In this document: one piece after another, positions 10,912-37,980 of the stretch
How positions within the stretch are numbered: the stretch's first letter is position 1
Layout: every line of letters starts with the position of its first letter
Source of the DNA: an uncultured Sphingopyxis sp.
Lineage (GTDB): Bacteria; Pseudomonadota; Alphaproteobacteria; Sphingomonadales; Sphingomonadaceae
Direction of reading: 5' to 3'
Assembly: GCA_964426485.1 (NCBI GenBank)
Contig: CAYRQX010000015.1
Coordinates: 7,899-71,898 of the forward strand
Length of the DNA stretch: 64,000 bases
Translations under genes and position numbers: made by a program
Notes under the pieces: model-generated
Databases searched by the model: none
What the model was told of the DNA's origin: nothing
What the model saw: the letters and a program-made list of their open reading frames with translations, nothing else

Positions 10912-11862
10912 TCAACTCGTCTCGCGAACCCGCGCCGGGGCGCCCAGCGTACATTCCAGCTCGGCGCGGTCCCATCGCCCGGCGTCGGCCGCCGCGCCAT
11001 AGGTGCGCTCGAGAAAATCAAGCAGCAGCGCATCGGGCGACGTCGCGGTCCGCACCGCCTCATAGGGCAGGATATATTCGCCCATGCCCGTATCGAACCG
11101 CGCCGCCGCGGGCATCGGATAGTCGCGAAACCCGGCCGGTTCGGGATAGGCATAGGAATAGAAAGCCGGTTCGGGAAAAGCGTCGCCGCCCGGCCAGAAT
11201 CCCGCGCTGCTGACCTCGTGCGAATAGGCCTCGCGCGTCACCGGGTCGGGCAGGCCGGGCACCCCGCCCGGATGCGGCGGCGCCGAGCGGCCCGAAAAGC
11301 GCGTGACGGCGAGGTCGAAGCTGCCCCAAAAGAAATGCACCGGGCTCGCCTTGCCCAGAAAGCCGCTGCGGAACAGCTTGAACACCCGGTCGACCTGTAC
11401 CAGCGCGCGCCAGAAACGATGAGCGGCATCAGCGTCATAGCTTTTGTTGCTCTCGTCGCGCGCAAACGGGATCGGATCGGGCACCTCGTTGGGCACGCCA
11501 TGGATACGCACCTCTATGCCCAGGTCGGCGAGCAGCCCGAGCAGCCGGTCGTGAAAATCGGCGACGCTGCGCGGCTCCAGCACCAGTTCGCGATCCTGGC
11601 CCTGGCTGGTGCGGCAGATCAGCCGGTGGACGATGAAATCAAATTCGATCTCGAGCAGTTCATGCCCGGCCGGCATCGGTGATGTCGTCAGCCCGCGCGC
11701 GCTGACATAGAGCGGCACCTGCCAGCCATGATTGAGCCAGGGCGTCAGTGACAGGCGGACCTTGCCGACGATCTGCGTCCACAGTTGCAACGTGAGCGCG
11801 GTATCGCGCCAGTCGGCCCAGTGCAGTTCGGGCCAGATCGCGGATTGCTCGGTTGGTGACAT
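10912..11862 (-). CDS. Conserved hypothetical protein (DUF5996-like)
   Basis: WRDTALTLQLWTQIVGKVRL...VHFFWGSFDLAVTRFSGR...EAYSHEVSSAGFWPG; family recognised from memory. Start at ATG 11862. Confidence 0.8.
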   Translation of the reverse strand: MSPTEQSAIWPELHWADWRDTALTLQLWTQIVGKVRLSLTPWLNHGWQVPLYVSARGLTTSPMPAGHELLEIEFDFIVHRLICRTSQGQDRELVLEPRSVADFHDRLLGLLADLGIEVRIHGVPNEVPDPIPFARDESNKSYDADAAHRFWRALVQVDRVFKLFRSGFLGKASPVHFFWGSFDLAVTRFSGRSAPPHPGGVPGLPDPVTREAYSHEVSSAGFWPGGDAFPEPAFYSYAYPEPAGFRDYPMPAAARFDTGMGEYILPYEAVRTATSPDALLLDFLERTYGAAADAGRWDRAELECTLGAPARVRETS

Positions 11863-11924
11863 CGCGGCTTTCCTTCGACAAATATCGCACGTAGCCCCCG
11901 CGTGATGTTTAGCCGCTTTCGCGC

Positions 11925-12227
11925 CTAAAAATAGCGCGGAATCGGTCCGATCTGCGGCGTCTGGTCGGGAAGTTCGACCATCACATCGTCGATATAGCAC
12001 CATCCCCAGCCTTCGGGCGGGTCATAGCCCTCGATGATCGGATGTCCGGTCTCATGAAAATGCGCGCGCGCGTGGCGATGCGGCGAATCGTCGCAGCATC
12101 CGACATGACCGCACGAACGGCAAAGACGCAGGTGAACCCACATCCCACCGACCGCCAAACATTCCTCGCACCCCTTGGCGCTAGGAACGACGTCTTGGAT
12201 CGCGGATTCATGCGAACAGGATGTCAT
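11925..12227 (-). CDS. UBP-type zinc finger protein
   Basis: CxH...CEEC...WVHLRLCRSCGHVGCCDDSPHRHARAHFHETGHP. Start at ATG 12227. Confidence 0.88.
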   Translation of the reverse strand: MTSCSHESAIQDVVPSAKGCEECLAVGGMWVHLRLCRSCGHVGCCDDSPHRHARAHFHETGHPIIEGYDPPEGWGWCYIDDVMVELPDQTPQIGPIPRYF

Positions 12228-12338
12228 GGCGTTTCCTTTGTCGGTGGGGCACGAAATCCGCTGCCATCTATATTTCGTCCCTGATGAAAACGAAAGACGG
12301 CGGCTTATGGTCATTATGCGCAACCGACGGCCGGGGGC

Positions 12339-12370
12339 GAGTTCCGCTTTGGCGTGGTGAGCCGCCATTG
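12339..12370 (+). repeat. Lone short hairpin element of the GGGGTGG-core (L) type
   Basis: GTTCCGC-TTT-GGCGTGG-TGA-GCCGCCA, same 7-3-7-3-7 geometry as the other L ends. Confidence 0.45.
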
Positions 12371-12615
12371 TCGTTTCGGTTATTCCGAACCGGGGCCGCG
12401 ATCCGGTCGGCGCATGCGCCGGGCCATCATGCCAAAGGTCAGGAAAGGTCAGCCTATTGCAGTGCCCCATTTGTCGCGCTCGACCGACAGATGGCAGCCG
12501 GACCTTGGCCGAATCCGGCATCCGGGCAGCGACCGCTTTTGCCTGCGAATTGAAAGAGCTGAAATGAAGGCTGGCACAGCGGAATAATGTAGGAAAGCAC
12601 TTTTTTCAAAGGCGG

Positions 12616-13005
12616 ATGGCGGCTTTGGGGTGGAAAGCGGTCACGACGCCTCCTATGCTGGGGCATGGCTAAGCAAGACCCCGAATATCTAAAGAATCAA
12701 AGTCGCAGGGGACATGCTAGATATCGCTGGTACCGCGCCTATCTAAATGCAGTTACTATAGTTTGGACTGCGTTGTTCGGAGTCCTCTTTCTGATCGCTT
12801 TTGCAGATCGCATAACGGGATCGGAATGGGGCTTTGAAAGTTACATGTGGGAATTCGTGGGCTTCCTTGGTTTCGGACTGGGCGCTTGGATTTTCAACAC
12901 GCTGATACAGAAGCTGATATTAGCATACGTCCGACATACCTACGGTCCAGAACCGATCGACTGACAGCCCCGGAACGTCCGCAACCGGTCGTGAGCGGCC
13001 ATTCC
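12616..13005 (+). mobile_element. Putative hairpin-bounded mini-cassette (L end, orphan gene, R end)
   Basis: L: ATGGCGGC-TTT-GGGGTGG-AAA-GCGGTCA (12616-12643). R: CGTCCGC-AAC-CGGTCG-TGA-GCGGCCA (12976-13001). They enclose a low-GC ORF. Mobility is inferred, not shown. Confidence 0.5.
12665..12964 (+). CDS. Orphan two-TM membrane protein, low GC
   Basis: 99 aa with two hydrophobic segments; 144/300 = 48% GC by hand count versus about 65% in the flanks. Confidence 0.65.
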   Translation: MAKQDPEYLKNQSRRGHARYRWYRAYLNAVTIVWTALFGVLFLIAFADRITGSEWGFESYMWEFVGFLGFGLGAWIFNTLIQKLILAYVRHTYGPEPID

Positions 13006-13022
13006 CGGTCAGGCGCCCGCAT

Positions 13023-13694
13023 CTAAGCCGCCCGTGCGAACCAGATCACATGCCGCGGGCCTTTGCCATTGCTTCGGGCGCGCACGCCGACTTCTTCGAC
13101 CTGAAAGCCCGCCGCCGTCAGCCGCCGCGTGAAGCGCGCGTCGGGGGCCGCGGACCATATCGCCAGTATCCCGCCGGGGCGCAGCGCCGCCTTGGCCGCC
13201 GCGAGGCCCGCCACCGAATAGAGACCCTCGTTCGCCTCGCGCGTCAGACCATCGGGACCATTGTCGACGTCGAGCAGGATCGCGTCATAGCGGCGCGTCG
13301 CCCCGCCGATCGCTTTCGACACGTCGCCGAGGATCAGTTCGACCCGCGGATCGTCGAGGCAGCCCGCCGCCAGCTCGGCCATCGGACCGCGCGCCCATTC
13401 GATGATGCCCGGCACCAGCTCGGCCACGGCAATCTTTGCATCGGGGCCGAGCACCCCCAGCGCGGCGCGCAGCGTGAACCCCATGCCATAGCCGCCGATC
13501 AGCAGGCTACCCGCCTTCGGATTGCGCAGCCGGTCGCACGTCATCGTTGCCAGCGCTTCTTCGGAGCCGCTCATCCGGCTGCTCATCAATTCGTTGCGAT
13601 CGATCGCGATGATGAAATCGTCGCCGCGCCGGTACAGGCGCAGGGCGTCGCCGCCCGGCACCTCCGCCGTGCCGACCAGTTCGCGAATCTTCAA
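13023..13694 (-). CDS. Spermidine-synthase-like SAM-dependent methyltransferase fold protein
   Basis: ELMSSRMSGSEEALA, LIGGYGMGFT, AILLDVDNGP; proposed TTG start overlaps the astB stop (TTGA). Confidence 0.82.
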   Translation of the reverse strand: MKIRELVGTAEVPGGDALRLYRRGDDFIIAIDRNELMSSRMSGSEEALATMTCDRLRNPKAGSLLIGGYGMGFTLRAALGVLGPDAKIAVAELVPGIIEWARGPMAELAAGCLDDPRVELILGDVSKAIGGATRRYDAILLDVDNGPDGLTREANEGLYSVAGLAAAKAALRPGGILAIWSAAPDARFTRRLTAAGFQVEEVGVRARSNGKGPRHVIWFARAA

Positions 13695-21145: not shown

Positions 21146-21522
21146 TGCTGTCCGCTTCGTGTCTTTGCGGCGCGACGCGATACACATTGTCGGGCCCGAT
21201 CGACGAGGTGGTGCTGTGCCAGTGCGGTCAGTGCCGCCGCGCCAACGGTGGAGCGTTCAACGTGGCGGTTCTGGCCGATGCGGCTGACGTTGCGTTCGAT
21301 GCACGCGACGCCGTTTGCGAATATGAAAGCTCGCCGGGCAAATATCGCGCCTTCTGCTCGGGATGCGGCGCGCCCGTCTACAGCCGCCGCGACGACTCGC
21401 CCGGCATACTCCGTCTCCGCGGCGGATTGATCGACGCGCTGCCCGCCCCGCGCCGCCTCACCGTAAGCCACCGCGCCGACGGCTGGGACTGGATAGCGGG
21501 CGTCGAGGGAAGGGACGGCTGA
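21145..21522 (+). CDS. GFA family (CENP-V-like) protein
   Basis: SCLCGA...CQCGQCRR...FCSGCG zinc motifs; start overlaps the glcB stop. Confidence 0.85.
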   Translation: MLSASCLCGATRYTLSGPIDEVVLCQCGQCRRANGGAFNVAVLADAADVAFDARDAVCEYESSPGKYRAFCSGCGAPVYSRRDDSPGILRLRGGLIDALPAPRRLTVSHRADGWDWIAGVEGRDG

Positions 21523-21660
21523 CGACCCGAAGCGGACCTATCCTTCATTCGTCACCCCGGACTTGATCCGGGGTCCATGACTGCAGCGCTGCCGTGGATC
21601 CCGGATCAAGTCCGGGATGACGAATGATGGGTACGTCCGCCACCCACCCCTTTCCCGCCG
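21512..21660 (-). repeat. Composite element: L hairpin + CGTC-type REP doublet + R hairpin (copy 1)
   Basis: 46-bp near-perfect arms 21532-21577 and 21595-21640 (CGTCACCCCGGACTTGATCCGGGG type) with a 17-nt loop; flanked by GGGGTGG-core and GGGTCG-core short hairpins. Confidence 0.9.
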
Positions 21661-21736
21661 CTTCCATACAATACGCCTTGCCTTCACCCCTTATAGTCCG
21701 GCATTTTGCGGCATGCGCAAACCGGGGGGCAGGGTG

Positions 21737-24506: not shown

Positions 24507-24510
24507 GCGA

Positions 24511-24675
24511 GCGACGGGTTCGGGGTGGATTGCAGACGGTCCCCTCTATTTCCGTTCGTGTCGAGCGAAGTCGAGACACCCCGAAGGCGCGCGCTACCGA
24601 TGGGTGTCTCGACTTCGCTCGACACGAACGGGATTTAGAAGGCGGTTTGTCCGCAACTGGTCGACGGTGGACATC
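24511..24675 (+). repeat. Composite element: L hairpin + REP doublet (second family) + R hairpin
   Basis: Perfect 30-bp arms CCGTTCGTGTCGAGCGAAGTCGAGACACCC (24552-24581 and 24602-24631); L end 24512-24538, R end 24648-24673. Confidence 0.88.
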
Positions 24676-24736
24676 GCGGGACGTCGTTGACGAGAGAGGC
24701 ATTGCGCGCGCCTCTCTCCCGCCCCACGTTTGCAAT

Positions 24737-29188: not shown

Positions 29189-32005
29189 ATGAAATCATCT
29201 TCCCTTCGTGCTGCCCGTTTTTTGCGCACCAGCGCCCTCGGCGTATCGCTTGCCATCGCTGCCGTCGCCGCACCGGCCTATGCGCAGGATGCGCCGGCCG
29301 ACACCGCAACCGACGACAGCGACGACACCCCGATCATCGTCACCGCGCAGGGCCGTTCGCAGCTGCTATCTGACGTCCCCGTCGCCATTTCGGCAGTCAG
29401 CGCCGAAACGCTGCAAAACAGCGGCGCGAACGACATTCGCCAGCTGAACCAAGTCGCGCCGTCGCTGCTCGTTTCGTCGACCGGTTCGGAAGCCAATGGT
29501 TCGGCGCGTATCCGCGGCATCGGTACGGTCGGTGACAATCCCGGCCTCGAAAGCTCGGTTCCTGTCTTCATCGACGGCGTTTATCGCTCGCGTTCGGGCA
29601 TCGGCCTCAACGAACTGGGCGAACTCGACCGGATCGAGGTCCAGCGCGGCCCGCAGGGCACGCTCGGCGGGCGCAACTCGTCGGCGGGCCTCATCAGCAT
29701 TTATTCGAAGAAGCCCGATTTCAACTTTGGTGCCACCGGCGAAGTGACCTATGGCAATTATGATTATTGGCGCCTCGGCGGCAGCGTCACCGGCCCGATC
29801 GGCGAGACGCTCGCCGCGCGGCTCGACGGCGTCTGGGTCAAGCGCGACGGTTTCTACAACGACACTGCGAACAACCGCGACGTCAACAACCGCGACCGCT
29901 ATTTCCTACGCGGACAATTGCTGTTCGAACCGACCGATGCGCTGTCGGTCCGCCTGATCGCCGACTATACGTCGCGCGACGAGGAATGCTGCGCGGCAAC
30001 CTATGTCGGCCCGACGGTCAATCCCTATATCGGCAATCTCAACACGCCGAGCCCCGCCAATGCGCCGACCGCGACGACGAACAACATCATCCGCGTGCTC
30101 GCCGATCTCGGCCAGCCGCTGTCGGCGTTCAACCAGGGTTACAGCCGCGATATCTCGGTCACCCCGGGGCGTAGCTTCGCCGGCAAGACCAAGGATTACG
30201 GCTTTTCGGGGCAGATCGATTATGATTTCGGCGGCGCGACGCTGACCTCGATCACCGCCTATCGCGAATATCGGTCGAGCCAGGCTGGCGACGTCGATTA
30301 TGGCGCGGTCGATATCCTCTATCGCGCGCCCGACGCCGACGCTTATCGCCAGTTCCACACCTTTACGCAGGAACTGCGCCTGCAGGGCGAAGCGTTTGAC
30401 GGCAAGCTCGACTGGCTCGTCGGCGGCTTCTACGCGGATGAAAAGCTGCGGGTGCGCGACAATCTGCGCTTCGGTGAGGATTATGGCCGGTTCGCGGCAT
30501 GCCGCCTCATCACCGGCACGCCGCTGGCGGGCCTATATTCGCCGACAAACCCGTCATGCATCATTCCCGGCGTCGGCCCGGCGACGATCGCCGCTGCAAA
30601 CGGTCCGTCCGGCCCGGATATCGTCGCGGCGCTGACCGCGCTCGACGGCCTGAGCGATCTCGGCAGCATCAACGACGTCTATCGCCAGAATGGCAAGAAT
30701 TGGGCGTTGTTCACGCACAATATCCTCCACATCACCGACAAACTCGATTTTACCTTCGGTGTCCGTTACACGAACGACAAGAAGAAATTCTCGGCGACGT
30801 TCACCAACGACAATACGGTGTGTACGACGGTTCAGGGTCTGGTGCTCGACGATGCGGCGCAGCCCGATATTCCAGGCACCGCCGACAATTTGGCGCGCGC
30901 CGTCGCGGGCGGCCTGATCGGCCTCGCCTGTCAGGGCAATTCGACCGCCGAGCTCAACAATGTGTCGATCAACGACCAGCGCAGCGAGGACGAATGGACC
31001 GGCACCGCGATCCTTTCGTACAAGCCGATCGACGACCTGATGGTCTATGCAAGCTATTCGCGCGGCTACAAAGCGGGCGGCTTCAACCTCGACCGCTCGG
31101 CGCTGAAATCGCCGATCCTGCCCTTCGCGGCGGCCGGCGGAGCCCAGGCGCTGGTCAGCAATCTGCAGTTCGATCCGGAAAAGGTCGACAGCTATGAAAT
31201 CGGCGCCAAATATGCGACCGGCCCGTTCGGCCTTGGCCTGACCTTCTTCCGGTCGGATTTCTCGAGCTTCCAGCTCAACACGTTCAACGGCACGGTCTTT
31301 CTTGTCCAGAACATCAACGGCTGCGACAGCGACCTGAACGGCGGCGACCGCGACCAGAGCAAGTTCACCGGAGCCCCGAACTTCAACGCGGCCGCGGGAT
31401 CGACCGGTGCCTGCGCCGCCGACGACGTCAGCCACGGCGTCCGGTCGCAGGGCTTCGAACTCGAAGCCTCGCTCGTCCCGGCGCGCGACTTCCGTATGAC
31501 CGCGGGCCTGACATATGCGCAGACCAAATATCGGGGACAGCTGGTCGGCAACAATTCCGGCGCGCCCCTCGATCAGGCGCTGCGCCTGCTGCCCGGCAAC
31601 AATCTGTCGAACGCGCCCGAACTGGTCGCGACCGGCAGCGTCGCCTGGACGCCCGACATTGGCAGCGGCGGCCTTTCCGGACTCGTCTATTTCGATGGCC
31701 GTATGACCAGCGATTACAACACCGGGTCCGACCTGTTCCCGCAAAAGGCGCAGGACGGCTTCGCACTGTTCAACGCGCGCATCGGCATTCGCGGTCCCGA
31801 CGAGAAGTGGGGCATCGAATTCTGGGGGCAGAATATCTTCAACAAGCAATATGCCCAGGTCGCGTTCAACTCCCCGTTCCAGGAAGGCGGCACCTCGGCG
31901 ACCACCGCCTTCGCCGACCCGCAATATCCGGGCGGCCGCCAGATCTTCTCGCAGTTCCTTGCCGAGCCGCGGACCTATGGCGTGACGCTGCGCGGCAAAT
32001 TCTAA
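29189..32005 (+). CDS. TonB-dependent receptor (paralog 1)
   Basis: Signal peptide, IIVTAQ TonB box, plug motif EVQRGPQGTLGGRN, GYKAGGFN, C-terminal PRTYGVTLRGKF; GAGAGGAG RBS. Confidence 0.95.
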   Translation: MKSSSLRAARFLRTSALGVSLAIAAVAAPAYAQDAPADTATDDSDDTPIIVTAQGRSQLLSDVPVAISAVSAETLQNSGANDIRQLNQVAPSLLVSSTGSEANGSARIRGIGTVGDNPGLESSVPVFIDGVYRSRSGIGLNELGELDRIEVQRGPQGTLGGRNSSAGLISIYSKKPDFNFGATGEVTYGNYDYWRLGGSVTGPIGETLAARLDGVWVKRDGFYNDTANNRDVNNRDRYFLRGQLLFEPTDALSVRLIADYTSRDEECCAATYVGPTVNPYIGNLNTPSPANAPTATTNNIIRVLADLGQPLSAFNQGYSRDISVTPGRSFAGKTKDYGFSGQIDYDFGGATLTSITAYREYRSSQAGDVDYGAVDILYRAPDADAYRQFHTFTQELRLQGEAFDGKLDWLVGGFYADEKLRVRDNLRFGEDYGRFAACRLITGTPLAGLYSPTNPSCIIPGVGPATIAAANGPSGPDIVAALTALDGLSDLGSINDVYRQNGKNWALFTHNILHITDKLDFTFGVRYTNDKKKFSATFTNDNTVCTTVQGLVLDDAAQPDIPGTADNLARAVAGGLIGLACQGNSTAELNNVSINDQRSEDEWTGTAILSYKPIDDLMVYASYSRGYKAGGFNLDRSALKSPILPFAAAGGAQALVSNLQFDPEKVDSYEIGAKYATGPFGLGLTFFRSDFSSFQLNTFNGTVFLVQNINGCDSDLNGGDRDQSKFTGAPNFNAAAGSTGACAADDVSHGVRSQGFELEASLVPARDFRMTAGLTYAQTKYRGQLVGNNSGAPLDQALRLLPGNNLSNAPELVATGSVAWTPDIGSGGLSGLVYFDGRMTSDYNTGSDLFPQKAQDGFALFNARIGIRGPDEKWGIEFWGQNIFNKQYAQVAFNSPFQEGGTSATTAFADPQYPGGRQIFSQFLAEPRTYGVTLRGKF

Positions 32006-32242: not shown

Positions 32243-35053
32243 ATGACCATGAAAGACCGTTCGCGCCATATCCGCCTGCTGCGTAGCTGCGCCGCGGGCC
32301 TGCCGATTGTCCTTGCCCTGTGGGCCGTGCCTGCCACGGCGCAGGATCCGGGCGCCCAGCAAAACGACGAGACGATCATCGTGACCGCGACGCGGCGCAG
32401 CGAGGCGCTGTCCGACGTCCCGATCGCGGTCTCCGCGGTCACCGGCGAGACGCTGGAAAAGACCGGCGCGACCGACGTGCGCGCGCTGGGACAGGTCGCG
32501 CCGTCGCTGCTGGTGTCGGGCGCGACGAGCGAGGTCAATTTTTCGGCGCGCATCCGCGGCATCGGCACGGTCGGCGAGAACCCCGGCCTCGAATCGTCGG
32601 TCGGCCTGTTCATCGACGGCGTCTATCGCAGCCGCACCGGCGTCGGTCTCTCCGAACTCGGCGACATCGAGCGCGTCGAGGTGCTGCGCGGGCCGCAGGG
32701 CACGCTGTTCGGCCGCAACTCGACTGCGGGGCTGATCAACATCGTCACCAAAGGCCCCGAGCTCGGCCGCTTCGGCGCCAAGGGTTCGATATCCTATGGC
32801 AATTATGATTATTGGCGCGTCGACGGCATGATCAATGCGCCGCTGGGCGACAAGGTGGCGGCGCGCATCGACGGCGTATGGCAGAAACGCGACGGTTTCA
32901 TCGACAATGCGACGCCCGGCGAACCCGACATCAACGACCGCGACCGCTGGCTGGTGCGCGGGCAGCTGCTGTTCGAACCGAGCGAGACGATGAAATTCCG
33001 CCTGATCGCCGATTACAGCAAGCGCAACGAAAATTGCTGCGGCGGCGTCCTGCTGAACCCCGTCCGTAATCTGGCGCGCGGAGCCGACGGCTTTCCCGTC
33101 GCATCGGCGAACAGCTTGTTGCCGATCCTGCAGACACTGGGCGCGAACCATCAGGTCGCGCCGGCGGGAACGCCCTTTGTCCGGCGACAGGCGACGACGC
33201 CCGGGGTCACCTATCGCTCGGACACCAAAGACTGGGGCGTTTCGGGCGAGCTGGGCTGGGAGCTCGGCGCGGCGACATTGACCTCGATCACCGCCTATCG
33301 CGATTACCGGAATGCGCAGGGCCAGGACGCCGATTTCAGCGCGCTCGACATCCTTCGCCGGACCGACCTCGACCGCCGGTTCCGGCTGTTCACGCAGGAA
33401 GTCCGGTTGCAGGGCGAGGCGTTCGACGGGCGGCTCGACTGGCTGGTCGGCGGCTATTATGCGAACGAGAAACTCGATGTCGACGACGATATTGTTTACG
33501 GCAACAATTACGAACAATTCGCCAACTGCCTGCTCTTCGCAAGCGCGTTGCCGACTGCGGTGCTGCCGTCGAACGCGTCGTGCGTCAACGTGCCGGTGGT
33601 CCAGGGGACGATTACCGCGCTGTCGGGATTGCCCGTCGGCGACCCGCGCCGCGCCTCGATCCCGCTGCTCACGGCGCTGATCGCCAATCCGGCGCGTCCG
33701 GGCTTCGGCTCGCTGGCCGCGGCGCTCGGCCAGCCGACGCTCGCGATCAACGGCACCGGCAATCAGGGATCGACCTTTGCGCAGCGCAGCCGCAACTTTG
33801 CGGTCTTTACGCACAACAGCTTCGACATCGTTCCCGACGTGCTGACCTTCACGATCGGCGCGCGCTATACAAGCGAACGCAAGACACTGGATGCCGACGC
33901 GAATTTCAACAATGCGATATGCCCGCTGATCGTCAATTCGCCCTTCCAGTCGCTCGCGACCTTGCCCTGCGTCATCAACGGCACCGCACCCGACCTGCCG
34001 CGCGGCAGCGCGGGCACGAAGTTCAAGGATAATGAATGGACCGGGACCGCGGTGCTCAGCTGGAAACCCGCCCCCGAATGGCTGGTCTATGGATCGGCGT
34101 CGAAGGGATATAAGGCGGGCGGCTTCAACCTCGATTTCTCGGCGCTCGACCGGACGTGCAACACCGCCTTCGACACCCTGTGCGCCGCGCGGCTGGCGGC
34201 GCCCGCCAACACCTCTGGTAACGGCCGGCCCGAGGCAAGCGACCTGCAATTCGCGAGCGAAAAGGTCGATGCCTATGAACTCGGGATCAAATGGGACGGC
34301 CCCGGGATCGACGTCAATGTCGCGGCTTTCTATCAGGAATATAGCAATTACCAGCTCAACACCTTCAACGGCGTCAATTTCGAAGTCACCAATATCCAGG
34401 CGTGCAAGGACGATCTGAACGGCGCCGACGCCGACGGGTCGGCGACGACCGGCGCTTGCCCGTCCGACCGGCTGAAACCGGGCGTGCGGTCGAAGGGGGT
34501 CGAGATCGAGGCGTTCCTGCGCCCCGCGCGATATGTGGCGGTCAATATGGGGCTGACCTGGGTCGACACGCTTTATCGCCGCAATCTGGTGGGCACGGGC
34601 GGGCGGGCGCTGTCGCCGGTGCTGTTCCAGCTTCCCGGCCGCGGCGTGTCGAACGCGCCGCGCTATGTCGCGACCGCGGGGATCAGCTGGACCCCGCCGA
34701 TCGGCAGCTCGGGGATGAGCGCGCTCGTCTATCTCGACACGCGCCTGCAAAGCGACACCAACACCGGGTCCGACCTCGACGTCGAAAAGGTCCAGGACGG
34801 CTTCGCGATCTTCAACGGCCGCATCGGCCTTTATGGGCCGGAGCGGCGCTGGGGGGTCGAAATCTGGGGCCAGAATCTGTTCAACAAGACATATTACCAG
34901 ATCGGCGCCGACATGCCGTTGCAGGGTGGCGGCACCTTCCGCGCCGTCGCGGCGCCCGCTTCTTCGGGGTTGGCAGGCACCGCGAACCAGCTGTTCGTCG
35001 GCTTCCCCGGCGAACCGCGGACCTACGGCATAACGCTGCGCGGCCAGTTCTGA
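32243..35053 (+). CDS. TonB-dependent receptor (paralog 2)
   Basis: IIVTATRR, EVLRGPQGTLFGRN, GYKAGGFNLD, C-terminal PRTYGITLRGQF; GGAGGAG RBS. Confidence 0.95.
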   Translation: MTMKDRSRHIRLLRSCAAGLPIVLALWAVPATAQDPGAQQNDETIIVTATRRSEALSDVPIAVSAVTGETLEKTGATDVRALGQVAPSLLVSGATSEVNFSARIRGIGTVGENPGLESSVGLFIDGVYRSRTGVGLSELGDIERVEVLRGPQGTLFGRNSTAGLINIVTKGPELGRFGAKGSISYGNYDYWRVDGMINAPLGDKVAARIDGVWQKRDGFIDNATPGEPDINDRDRWLVRGQLLFEPSETMKFRLIADYSKRNENCCGGVLLNPVRNLARGADGFPVASANSLLPILQTLGANHQVAPAGTPFVRRQATTPGVTYRSDTKDWGVSGELGWELGAATLTSITAYRDYRNAQGQDADFSALDILRRTDLDRRFRLFTQEVRLQGEAFDGRLDWLVGGYYANEKLDVDDDIVYGNNYEQFANCLLFASALPTAVLPSNASCVNVPVVQGTITALSGLPVGDPRRASIPLLTALIANPARPGFGSLAAALGQPTLAINGTGNQGSTFAQRSRNFAVFTHNSFDIVPDVLTFTIGARYTSERKTLDADANFNNAICPLIVNSPFQSLATLPCVINGTAPDLPRGSAGTKFKDNEWTGTAVLSWKPAPEWLVYGSASKGYKAGGFNLDFSALDRTCNTAFDTLCAARLAAPANTSGNGRPEASDLQFASEKVDAYELGIKWDGPGIDVNVAAFYQEYSNYQLNTFNGVNFEVTNIQACKDDLNGADADGSATTGACPSDRLKPGVRSKGVEIEAFLRPARYVAVNMGLTWVDTLYRRNLVGTGGRALSPVLFQLPGRGVSNAPRYVATAGISWTPPIGSSGMSALVYLDTRLQSDTNTGSDLDVEKVQDGFAIFNGRIGLYGPERRWGVEIWGQNLFNKTYYQIGADMPLQGGGTFRAVAAPASSGLAGTANQLFVGFPGEPRTYGITLRGQF

Positions 35054-37812: not shown

Positions 37813-37964
37813 TAACGGCGGGAAGCGACCCGAAGCGGAGCTATCCTTCATCGTCACCCCGGACTTGATCCGGGGTCCATGACTGCAGCGCTGCCGTGGA
37901 TCCCGGATCAAGTCCGGGATGACGAATGATGGGTACGTCCGCCATCCACCCCAAACCAGACATC
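37813..37964 (-). repeat. Composite element: L hairpin + CGTC-type REP doublet + R hairpin (copy 2)
   Basis: Near-identical to 21512-21660 over about 120 bp, including the loop TGACTGCAGCGCTGCCG. Confidence 0.9.
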
Positions 37965-37980
37965 GGCATCGGGCGGGCAT

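Follow-up and report, generated by a model that had tools for sequence, protein, structure and literature searches.

How did a single low-GC gene come to lie, with almost no spare DNA on either side, between two short repeats in a genome of considerably higher GC content? The question is raised by a 64,000-nucleotide (nt) stretch of contig CAYRQX010000015.1 from an uncultured Sphingopyxis sp. (GCA_964426485.1), hereafter the window, in which an open reading frame (ORF) for a 99-residue protein is bracketed by a left motif, L, and a right motif, R. A reading of the sequence alone had taken these motifs for hairpins (L 12616-12644, R 12976-13005) and the arrangement for a gene-cassette-like acquisition. 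Our analysis suggests that the ORF is probably the sole cargo of a mobile unit (~12620-13005) which carries no enzyme of its own, provides an exchangeable slot and would be moved in trans via the L and R cores. In what follows G000 denotes this genome, other G numbers denote comparison genomes, C numbers contigs, and L001 and its like compared loci.

The L family has the core TTTGGGGTGGRRAGCGGAC and the R family the core GTCCGCWWYYGGTCG, the latter with the consensus GTCCGC(AA/TT)YYGGTCG. With up to two mismatches allowed over its 19 nt, the L core pattern occurs 55 times in G000 and not at all in a reversed control; another species of the genus carries 47 copies, and 64 of 112 other genera of the family have 1-10 copies each (reversed control, 0-2). 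L and the reverse complement of R have GTCNGC/GCNGAC stems in common and TTT...GG loops that are partly similar, and the two align as imperfect inverted repeats of ~25 nt. Because the stems are shared in inverted form, L and R are imperfect inverted copies of one motif, and by its sequence the L..R pair is a doublet of the REPIN or BIME type (REP doublet forming hairpins, and bacterial interspersed mosaic element, where REP stands for repetitive extragenic palindrome). Strictly defined pairs, in which R follows L on the same strand within 800 nt, are seen ~44 times in the genome where ~0.2 would be expected by chance, and R cores terminate 44 L..R units in G000.

The earlier reading had singled out the ORF for its low GC content and for its tight packing, and both hold. 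Whereas the GC content is 0.651 in the window and 0.642 in the genome, it is 0.48 in the ORF, whose GC content at third codon positions (GC3) is 0.50, against 0.79 for the adjacent gene; 20 nt separate L from the ATG and 11 nt separate the stop codon from R. A search of 5.8 billion proteins returned 15 homologs of 98-112 amino acids (aa) at 47-90% identity. Because a profile of the family matched only 42 clusters among 1.84 billion representative proteins, the family is small and rare. The alignment contains invariant N-terminal QDPEYLKNQS..H and C-terminal Y.RH.YG..P motifs, which in the 99-aa protein read QDPEYLKNQSRRGHARYR and AYVRHTYGPEP, with two hydrophobic helices between them. In comparisons of the ORF with three homologous DNA copies, third codon positions account for 19 of 31, 20 of 40 and 64 of 103 substitutions. 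AlphaFold2 predicts a helical hairpin (H6-51 and H58-93, pLDDT 94) of which helix H6-51 is strongly hydrophobic. Pfam gave zero matches for the protein, and a search of PDB folds with the model returned nothing significant (E > 1). On the strength of its homologs, conserved termini, third-position bias and confident AlphaFold2 model, the ORF is a real gene, and its product is predicted to be a small inner-membrane helical-hairpin protein whose conserved termini would face the cytoplasm. On the mobile-unit reading, the low-GC orphan gene in the window would be explained as mobile cargo rather than as an annotation artefact.

A search for homologs flanked by L and R at unrelated loci had been proposed as a check on mobility, and such loci exist. 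At nine homolog loci, from metagenomes and one genome assembly, the neighbours are entirely different from those in the window and include genes for phosphoenolpyruvate carboxykinase, a Band_7 protein with ribulose-phosphate epimerase, a Host_attach gene and alcohol dehydrogenase; the neighbours also differ across L001-L006 and L038-L041. An L-derived box resembling GGGGTGGAAAG is kept upstream of the start codon in all nine, over a protein identity range of 47-90%, and the R core (GTCCGCAAYYGGTCG) lies ~10 nt past the stop codon in five or six of the nine, the closer ones. DNA homology of the two closest loci to the window, L006 (90% identical at the protein level) and L038 (80%), begins at a point ~45-70 nt upstream of L that falls within the right-hand end of a 295-bp repeat described below, and the final ~45-70 nt of that repeat (GGCTGGCACAGCGGAATAATGTAGGAAAGC...) precede L at these loci too; the homology stops at the end of R, ...GCNGNCAT(T/G)C, near position 13005.

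Comparison of the locus among relatives, for which one genome per species was used, gives a similarly patchy picture. DNA matching the ORF was found in none of 40 relatives, and a protein search of 401 Sphingomonadales species genomes, G000 included, gave one other match, in G446 (L077, C2:41490-41777); this copy is 43% identical, contains two in-frame TGA codons and is probably decaying. The methyltransferase-like gene to the right of the unit, which is conserved in the genus and 75-91% identical in more than 15 relatives, anchors the comparison. The position 3' of it lacks any L or R in G013 and G023, and carries L-X-R units, with REP filler as X, in G021, G011, G007, G003 and G002. The cargo gene is therefore not syntenic, and its site is either empty or holds an L-X-R unit with REP filler instead. 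On the left, G013 and G021 lack the zf-UBP gene, and in G023 it lies immediately next to the methyltransferase-like gene; since it is variably present, the whole interval between the conserved neighbours is a variable region. The idea of one ancestral slot at this locus was rejected, because the register of R differs among three species: its distance to the stop codon of the methyltransferase-like gene is 15 nt in one, 20 nt in another and 31 nt in the third. These distances point to repeated or separate insertions into a hot spot. Judged by its GC3 contrast and patchy presence, the 99-aa gene is laterally acquired and not vertically inherited.

Several kinds of content are found between L and R in G000. 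Sixteen units measuring 253-787 nt from L to R are each filled by a single ORF of 78-216 aa with a GC content of 0.50-0.58. These cargos are unrelated to one another, and Pfam placed only one of 14 other cargo proteins above its curated cut-off, a SpoU methylase. Seven compact units have a stereotyped layout. Their start codon comes 21-28 nt past the inner GCGGAC stem, which is that of L when the cargo is on the plus strand and that of the reverse complement of R when it is on the minus strand; the stop codon comes 0-14 nt before the inner stem at the opposite end. A predicted minus-strand cargo ORF on C116 is probably spurious, since the real plus-strand gene has a stop codon there and is intact in the copy on C52; the count of cargo orientations is therefore approximate. 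A further ~25 units hold palindromic filler, in three main types with L-to-R lengths of 115, 119 and 130 nt, and two units, on C39 and C108, are essentially empty. The fillers of the two commonest types, the 115- and 119-nt units, are pairs of CGTC-tagged REPs such as CGTCATCCCGGACTTGATCCGGGATCCA, which consist of CGTC, a short GC-rich palindrome and a CCA-like tail; this structure is present in the filler and not in L or R. The three filler types X occur at 44, 35 and 24 loci, many of them outside L/R units, and because they are also found without L and R the modules are independent. Since the same ends enclose either REP filler or unrelated small genes, L..R behaves as a slot with exchangeable content. 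Looser patterns raise the background to ~7 chance L..R pairs genome-wide, and for this reason we relied on units that are independently confirmed.

Such confirmation comes from copies in other genomes. When the interiors of the 16 cassettes were compared with 60 other species of the genus, nine recurred, at 73-96% identity. At 15 recurrent cassette loci homology starts between -13 and +3 nt around TTTGGGG and stops within the R end; the exception is a diverged G008 copy of the C27 cassette (85% identical), which aligns from +28. Flank homology, sought over 1.5 kb on either side, was found at none of these 15 loci. In G014 a 95%-identical copy of the C2:86461 cassette lies elsewhere, and the site orthologous to that of G000 is contiguous and empty; the flanks of three further G000 cassettes are contiguous in other species, without L or R. 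Within G000, C52 and C116 have one cassette in common (89% identity over 547 bp) in unrelated flanks, with homology breaking 3 nt before TTTGGGG and ~10 nt after GGTCG. Direct repeats of 4 nt, the signature sought for a target-site duplication, are no more frequent than in a shuffled control in any register across 43 units, and no direct repeat accompanies the C52/C116 pair. As judged from these alignments, L-cargo-R units are shown to move as blocks between unrelated loci and species without target-site duplication. The proposal in the sequence-only reading that the L/R system moves genes, and not just repeats, is further supported by the nine recurrent cassettes, whose homology is confined to the unit.

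Some L/R sites appear to behave as slots. Seven sites in G000 are informative in that other species hold cassettes there; four of them are empty and three (C44, C106 and C87) carry L/R with REP-type content, and with an L/R unit in only ~1% of intergenic regions, chance would give far fewer than three of seven. At C44 the units of G000 and G014 have the same orientation and lie 20 and 10 nt past the stop codon of the same gene, with a REP pair in the one and a gene in the other. At the 24510-24680 site of the window, six genomes including G000 have L-X-R with differing X, and G023 and G042 are empty; G013, G046 and G110 have both L and R there, with the R 3' arm in the same register and with differing contents. 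By position and register, this site and the one common to G000 C44 and G014 look like shared slots. In pairs of cassettes that are 95-96% identical, the arms outside the cores (the L 5' arm and the R 3' arm) differ, and at two sites the R 3' arm partly coincides with native chromosomal sequence. Both features fit crossovers inside the cores, and faster decay of non-coding DNA could explain part of the arm differences. As an observation in its own right, L087 (G045:C1 ~1021438-1022766) is a copy of the C25-type cassette that has been split by an 845-bp IS5-like element with inverted ends of its own; cassettes can therefore be hit by ordinary insertion sequences (ISs).

We propose the following mechanism. 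The unit would be bounded by the L core and by the R core plus ~10 nt, and an enzyme supplied in trans from an unlinked gene would recombine DNA at these cores conservatively, with a logic like that of integrons or of pdif sites. The outcome would be either a swap of content in an existing L/R slot or the placement of a unit in a new intergenic site. Recombination at the cores is favoured on five grounds: the lack of a target duplication, variable tips, shared slots, the docking of the 295-bp repeat at the L loop, and the fixed R.L junctions of arrays (the last two are described below). The L loop would, in addition, give the cargo the -35-like TGGAAA of a promoter, placed 17 nt before a cargo-borne -10-like hexamer that in turn lies 5-7 nt before the start codon. 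In the window the ATG stands 5 nt after the -10-like TATGCT, and the geometry (TGGAAA-like box, 17 +/- 1 nt, -10-like hexamer, 5-7 nt, start codon) recurs in all nine homolog loci, down to 47% protein identity; the hexamer is TAnnnT in eight of them and TGAGCT in the ninth. This conservation suggests that the L-loop box and the hexamer form a promoter whose transcripts would begin at the start codon or beside it. Since the ATG is 5 nt past the -10-like element, the mRNA would have little or no leader. Alphaproteobacteria commonly produce leaderless mRNAs. For cassettes in the opposite orientation, the reverse complement of R would take the promoter role.

The ~295-bp repeat that adjoins the L core on its left is non-coding and multicopy. 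G000 has 13 near-full copies at 90.5-97.3% identity, one copy at 70% and several partial ones, and relatives have copies at 69-87% identity, for instance six in G018. All of the aligned copies that are uncut by contig ends terminate at an L core, and the sequence downstream varies from copy to copy. The left end of the repeat bears a more degenerate L-like sequence, and a junction of this end with the right one would make a perfect L-like hairpin, GGCGGC-TTTGGGGTGGTGA-GCCGCC. Because the copies end at L and their joined ends would be L-like, L motifs already in place appear to serve as docking sites for the repeat, which has the look of a small element with site-specific integration into L loops. 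As first drawn, the L hairpin had a 5' arm, ATGGCGGC, that is the conserved right end of this repeat and is not part of the cassette. The same right end contains a sigma-70-like match that is a possible alternative promoter for the cargo, from which a transcript would have a ~70-nt leader containing L.

Units in G000 are scattered singly in the chromosome, with no genuine R.L adjacency. Tandem arrays of the form L-gene-R.L-gene-R are found in other genera of the family and in metagenome contigs: four R.L junctions in two genomes of other genera have a 28-nt spacing and conserved sequence, and a fifth, in a third genome, has a spacing of 16 nt. One genome pairs L with the reverse complement of L. 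We also observed that L047, on contig C6 of G059 (15.8 kb, GC content 0.53, another genus), has small ORFs between L motifs that alternate in orientation, and this contig may be a cassette-rich island or a plasmid. A more far-reaching possibility, which we put forward only tentatively, is that the Sphingomonadaceae have a gene-cassette system of their own in which L and R each form one half of a recombination site that marks out chromosomal slots for exchange. Circles with a fixed R.L junction would swap REP fillers and single genes equipped with a promoter, from slot to slot and from species to species. The slots would be serviced by an unlinked recombinase, possibly a housekeeping one, and the 295-bp repeat would use the same machinery.

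Which enzyme might act on these ends? The earlier reading had noted neither intI nor an attC consensus, and our searches agree with it. Tyrosine recombinases (PF00589) gave 20 matches in G000, none of them on the 78-kb contig C15 (IntI-specific models were not run), and the nearest match to GTTRRRY, on either strand, is at least 1.1 kb from the cassette. Near eight cassette-array regions, in eight other genomes from seven genera, the search for tyrosine recombinases gave only a weak sub-threshold match ~2.3 kb from the array of G156, and some unit-bearing genomes have four matches in total. No recombinase-like protein was found among the cassette cargos, and in G000, the genome scanned for this, no credible L..R pair encloses an ORF of transposase size. 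Two other candidates were rejected: IS110-type enzymes (PF01548, DEDD), which are missing from five of nine L-rich genomes, and enzymes of the RAYT/Y1 kind, the single Y1 gene of G000 being flanked by another repeat. This gene (IS200/RAYT-like, 222 aa; C13:40702-41031, L027 1201-1869) is bracketed by AATAGGGACNGTCCCTATTTA palindromes that are unrelated to L and R, and it looks like a 'TIRtron' in the sense of PMC3733652. The AATAGGGACNGTCCCTATTTA palindrome was also seen on C40 of G000, near 12700.

A number of these results weigh against a unit moved at its cores by an enzyme acting in trans. None of the enzymes considered tracks the units: no tyrosine recombinase adjoins the units or arrays, IS110-type enzymes are confined to four of the nine L-rich genomes, and of 61 genomes of the genus just 10 have a Y1 transposase gene. 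In the three or four homolog loci that are most distant, R is either weak or absent. With the loose patterns ~4-5 of the 16 L..R pairs of gene size may have arisen by chance; 10 of the 16 are independently confirmed by copies elsewhere. The putative promoter was assigned from sequence geometry, and there is a second promoter-like site upstream (12559-12588). Because the outer arms are not inherited together with the cargo, the exact ends are uncertain by a few nt. Nor are the L and R hairpins any more stable than shuffled sequence. RNA folding z-scores against dinucleotide shuffles are -0.28 and -1.07 for the L strands and +1.49 and +0.73 for the R strands, so 'hairpin' is to be read as a description of sequence rather than as a demonstrated structure, and Rfam gave zero matches across window positions 11800-13400. 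The L 5' arm and the R 3' arm look complementary by eye, but long-range pairing between them was considered and rejected, since pairing within units is no better than with shuffled partners; the outer arms show no covariation inside units. Of the hairpin ends first described, then, the recurrent L and R motifs stand, whereas special stability does not, and the outer L arm belongs to the 295-bp repeat.

The strongest competitor is a classical non-autonomous transposon, of the kind known as mobile insertion cassettes (MICs) or MITEs (miniature inverted-repeat transposable elements) with a passenger gene, in which a DDE transposase encoded elsewhere would recognise L and R as terminal inverted repeats. 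The imperfect inverted repeats of ~25 nt formed by L and the reverse complement of R are what this would call for, as are units that have no enzyme gene and move as blocks, and an inward-facing -35 element in a terminal repeat is typical of IS ends, being found in IS1, IS10, IS30 and IS911. We nevertheless consider it unlikely. Neither the 43 units nor the C52/C116 pair has a target-site duplication; the outermost bases, which are the most conserved part of DDE ends, are here the least conserved and are not inherited with the cargo; the G000 scan gave no credible pair around a transposase-size ORF; and the only IS seen, the 845-bp insert in G045, has unrelated ends.

Alternatively, L and R might primarily be expression signals, a promoter and a 3' element, rather than recombination sites, and might have spread by promoter propagation or, once DNA had been taken up, by homology-driven gene conversion among dispersed copies (RecA or template switching). 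All that the most distant homolog loci keep of L is the -35/-10/start geometry, the distance from L (or the reverse complement of R) to the start codon is fixed, and differing outer arms in cassettes of 95-96% identity would be expected of crossovers inside short cores; the lack of a dedicated enzyme would also be accounted for. The same L and R, however, enclose the ~25 gene-less REP fillers, and units are present at sites where related species have neither a unit nor any L or R, so that first arrivals cannot be explained by short-homology exchange with a slot already there. The cores, at 15-19 nt, are moreover below the usual minimal length for RecA-dependent exchange, and on balance we regard this explanation as quite improbable.

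Very improbable, in our view, is mobilisation of the REPIN type, in which L and R would be a REP doublet moved as single-stranded DNA by a RAYT, a TIRYT or an IS200-like Y1 HUH transposase, with the gene caught between them. The inverted, intergenic doublet of hairpin-capable motifs is of the right form, L..R units most often contain CGTC-tagged REP pairs, and the absence of a target duplication is expected for HUH enzymes. CGTC REPs, moreover, predominate in Alphaproteobacteria, but no transposase dedicated to them is known (PMC3733652), the sole Y1 gene of G000 is flanked by a different repeat, and to the scarcity of Y1 genes in the genus must be added their absence from the L-rich genomes G110, G013, G021, G011 and G046. 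Finally, an orphan gene that came to lie by coincidence between two independently inserted REP-like repeats is hardly credible: L and R do each occur singly and the intergenic region is a repeat hot spot in relatives, but the excess of strict pairs over chance, the same flanks around homologs at unrelated loci, and homology that breaks at L and R in more than 10 independent cassettes speak against it. Our ranking places recombination at the L/R cores first and a DDE-type MIC or MITE second, with RAYT-type and homology-only mechanisms lower and coincidence excluded.

How does a unit that would be recombined at its L and R cores compare with systems already described? Like integron cassettes, L/R units contain compact single ORFs, mostly of no known function, with atypical composition and minimal non-coding DNA; they have imperfect inverted-repeat sites that are foldable, occur in varied contexts and, in other genera, in tandem arrays, and have shared sites with exchangeable content. 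Unlike them, they have no adjacent integrase and no GTTRRRY/RYYYAAC (R'/R'') cores, and the L and R halves bracket the gene whereas the integron site follows it; the units of G000 are scattered singly rather than arrayed, cargo is found in either orientation, and the end motif appears to bring the promoter. Integrons are reportedly absent from Alphaproteobacteria. In Neisseria, short inverted repeats flank variable intergenic units (dRS3 and Neisseria intergenic mosaic elements, NIMEs), and minimal mobile elements have alternative contents at one site among strains. The likeness lies in conserved inverted repeats around variable content at one chromosomal site; in our case the sequence family and host are different, and the repeats themselves bound the gene and set the limits of homology. 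The pdif (XerC/XerD) modules of Acinetobacter plasmids are also small gene modules between inverted sites, identical in differing contexts and with no recombinase encoded nearby, a housekeeping enzyme being invoked for pdif. L/R units, by contrast, are chromosomal and spread across a family of Alphaproteobacteria, and they show no likeness, by eye, to the 11-6-11 sites of the dif type.

MICs and MITEs with passenger genes, such as MIC231 of the Bacillus cereus group and the Tn3-derived inverted-repeat miniature elements (TIMEs, PMC4133298), resemble L/R units in having inverted-repeat ends, a passenger gene and no transposase, and in that short gene-less versions outnumber those with genes. 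The unit in the window has just these features: terminal inverted repeats, the 99-aa gene as sole ORF and no transposase. It differs in that L/R units lack a target-site duplication, no parent IS with matching ends was found in G000, the outermost bases are variable rather than best conserved, and slots have exchanged content. With REP, BIME and REPIN systems and the CGTC REPs (PMC3733652) the units share intergenic mosaics of hairpin-forming motifs in inverted pairs, and what lies between L and R is usually a pair of CGTC-type REPs; the L/R doublet differs in enclosing whole genes that move along with it, and Y1 genes are missing from most carrier genomes. The literature collection searched contained no description of such L/R units in sphingomonads, and the L/R system appears to be a new form of the cassette/MIC theme that extends across the Sphingomonadaceae.

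The features of the window are collected in Table 1. Aside from these, two segments of the window 3042 bp apart (29322-30274 and 32364-33310) are 71-78% identical over several stretches and are probably tandem paralogous genes.

Table 1. Features at the cassette locus and further L..R units in the window (positions in window coordinates).
Feature	Position	Strand	Basis or remark
L core, left end motif, TTTGGGGTGGAAAGCGGTC	12624..12642	+	19-nt pattern recurrent; cassette homology starts around TTTGGGG
Putative promoter: -35-like TGGAAA 12631-12636 (L loop), 17-nt spacer, -10-like TATGCT 12654-12659	12631..12659	+	geometry conserved
Cargo gene, 99 aa, two-helix (helical-hairpin) membrane protein of a rare family without a name	12665..12964	+	homologs, third-position substitution bias, AlphaFold2
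R end motif, core GTCCGCAACCGGTCG 12977-12991 plus ~14 nt TGAGCGGCCATTCC	12977..13005	+	imperfect inverted copy of L
~295-bp multicopy non-coding repeat (body 12346..12622), adjoins L core	12346-12640	+	copies in G000
Sigma-70-like promoter match CTGAAA-18-AATAAT, in right end of 295-bp repeat	12559..12588	+	consensus match only; 1 found against 0.4 in shuffles
Left neighbour, zf-UBP zinc-finger gene	11925..12227	-	Pfam PF02148, E = 2e-13
Right neighbour, spermine-synthase-like or S-adenosylmethionine (SAM)-methyltransferase-like gene	13023..13694 (5' limit approximate)	-	Pfam PF01564 and PF05430
L-X-R unit, CGTC-tagged REP pair	21510-21662	-	
L-X-R unit, 30-nt perfect palindrome	24510-24680	+	
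L-X-R unit, CGTC-tagged REP pair	37815-37968	-	

If this interpretation is correct, a family of environmentally important Alphaproteobacteria would package and exchange single genes in a previously undescribed way, through a system with short conserved ends, no linked enzyme, no target duplication, an apparent built-in leaderless promoter and mostly ORFan cargo. It would link the spread of CGTC-type REP mosaics, which have no dedicated transposase, to the missing integrons of the class, and L and R would provide a sequence handle both for mining the accessory genes of these bacteria and for finding the responsible recombinase.

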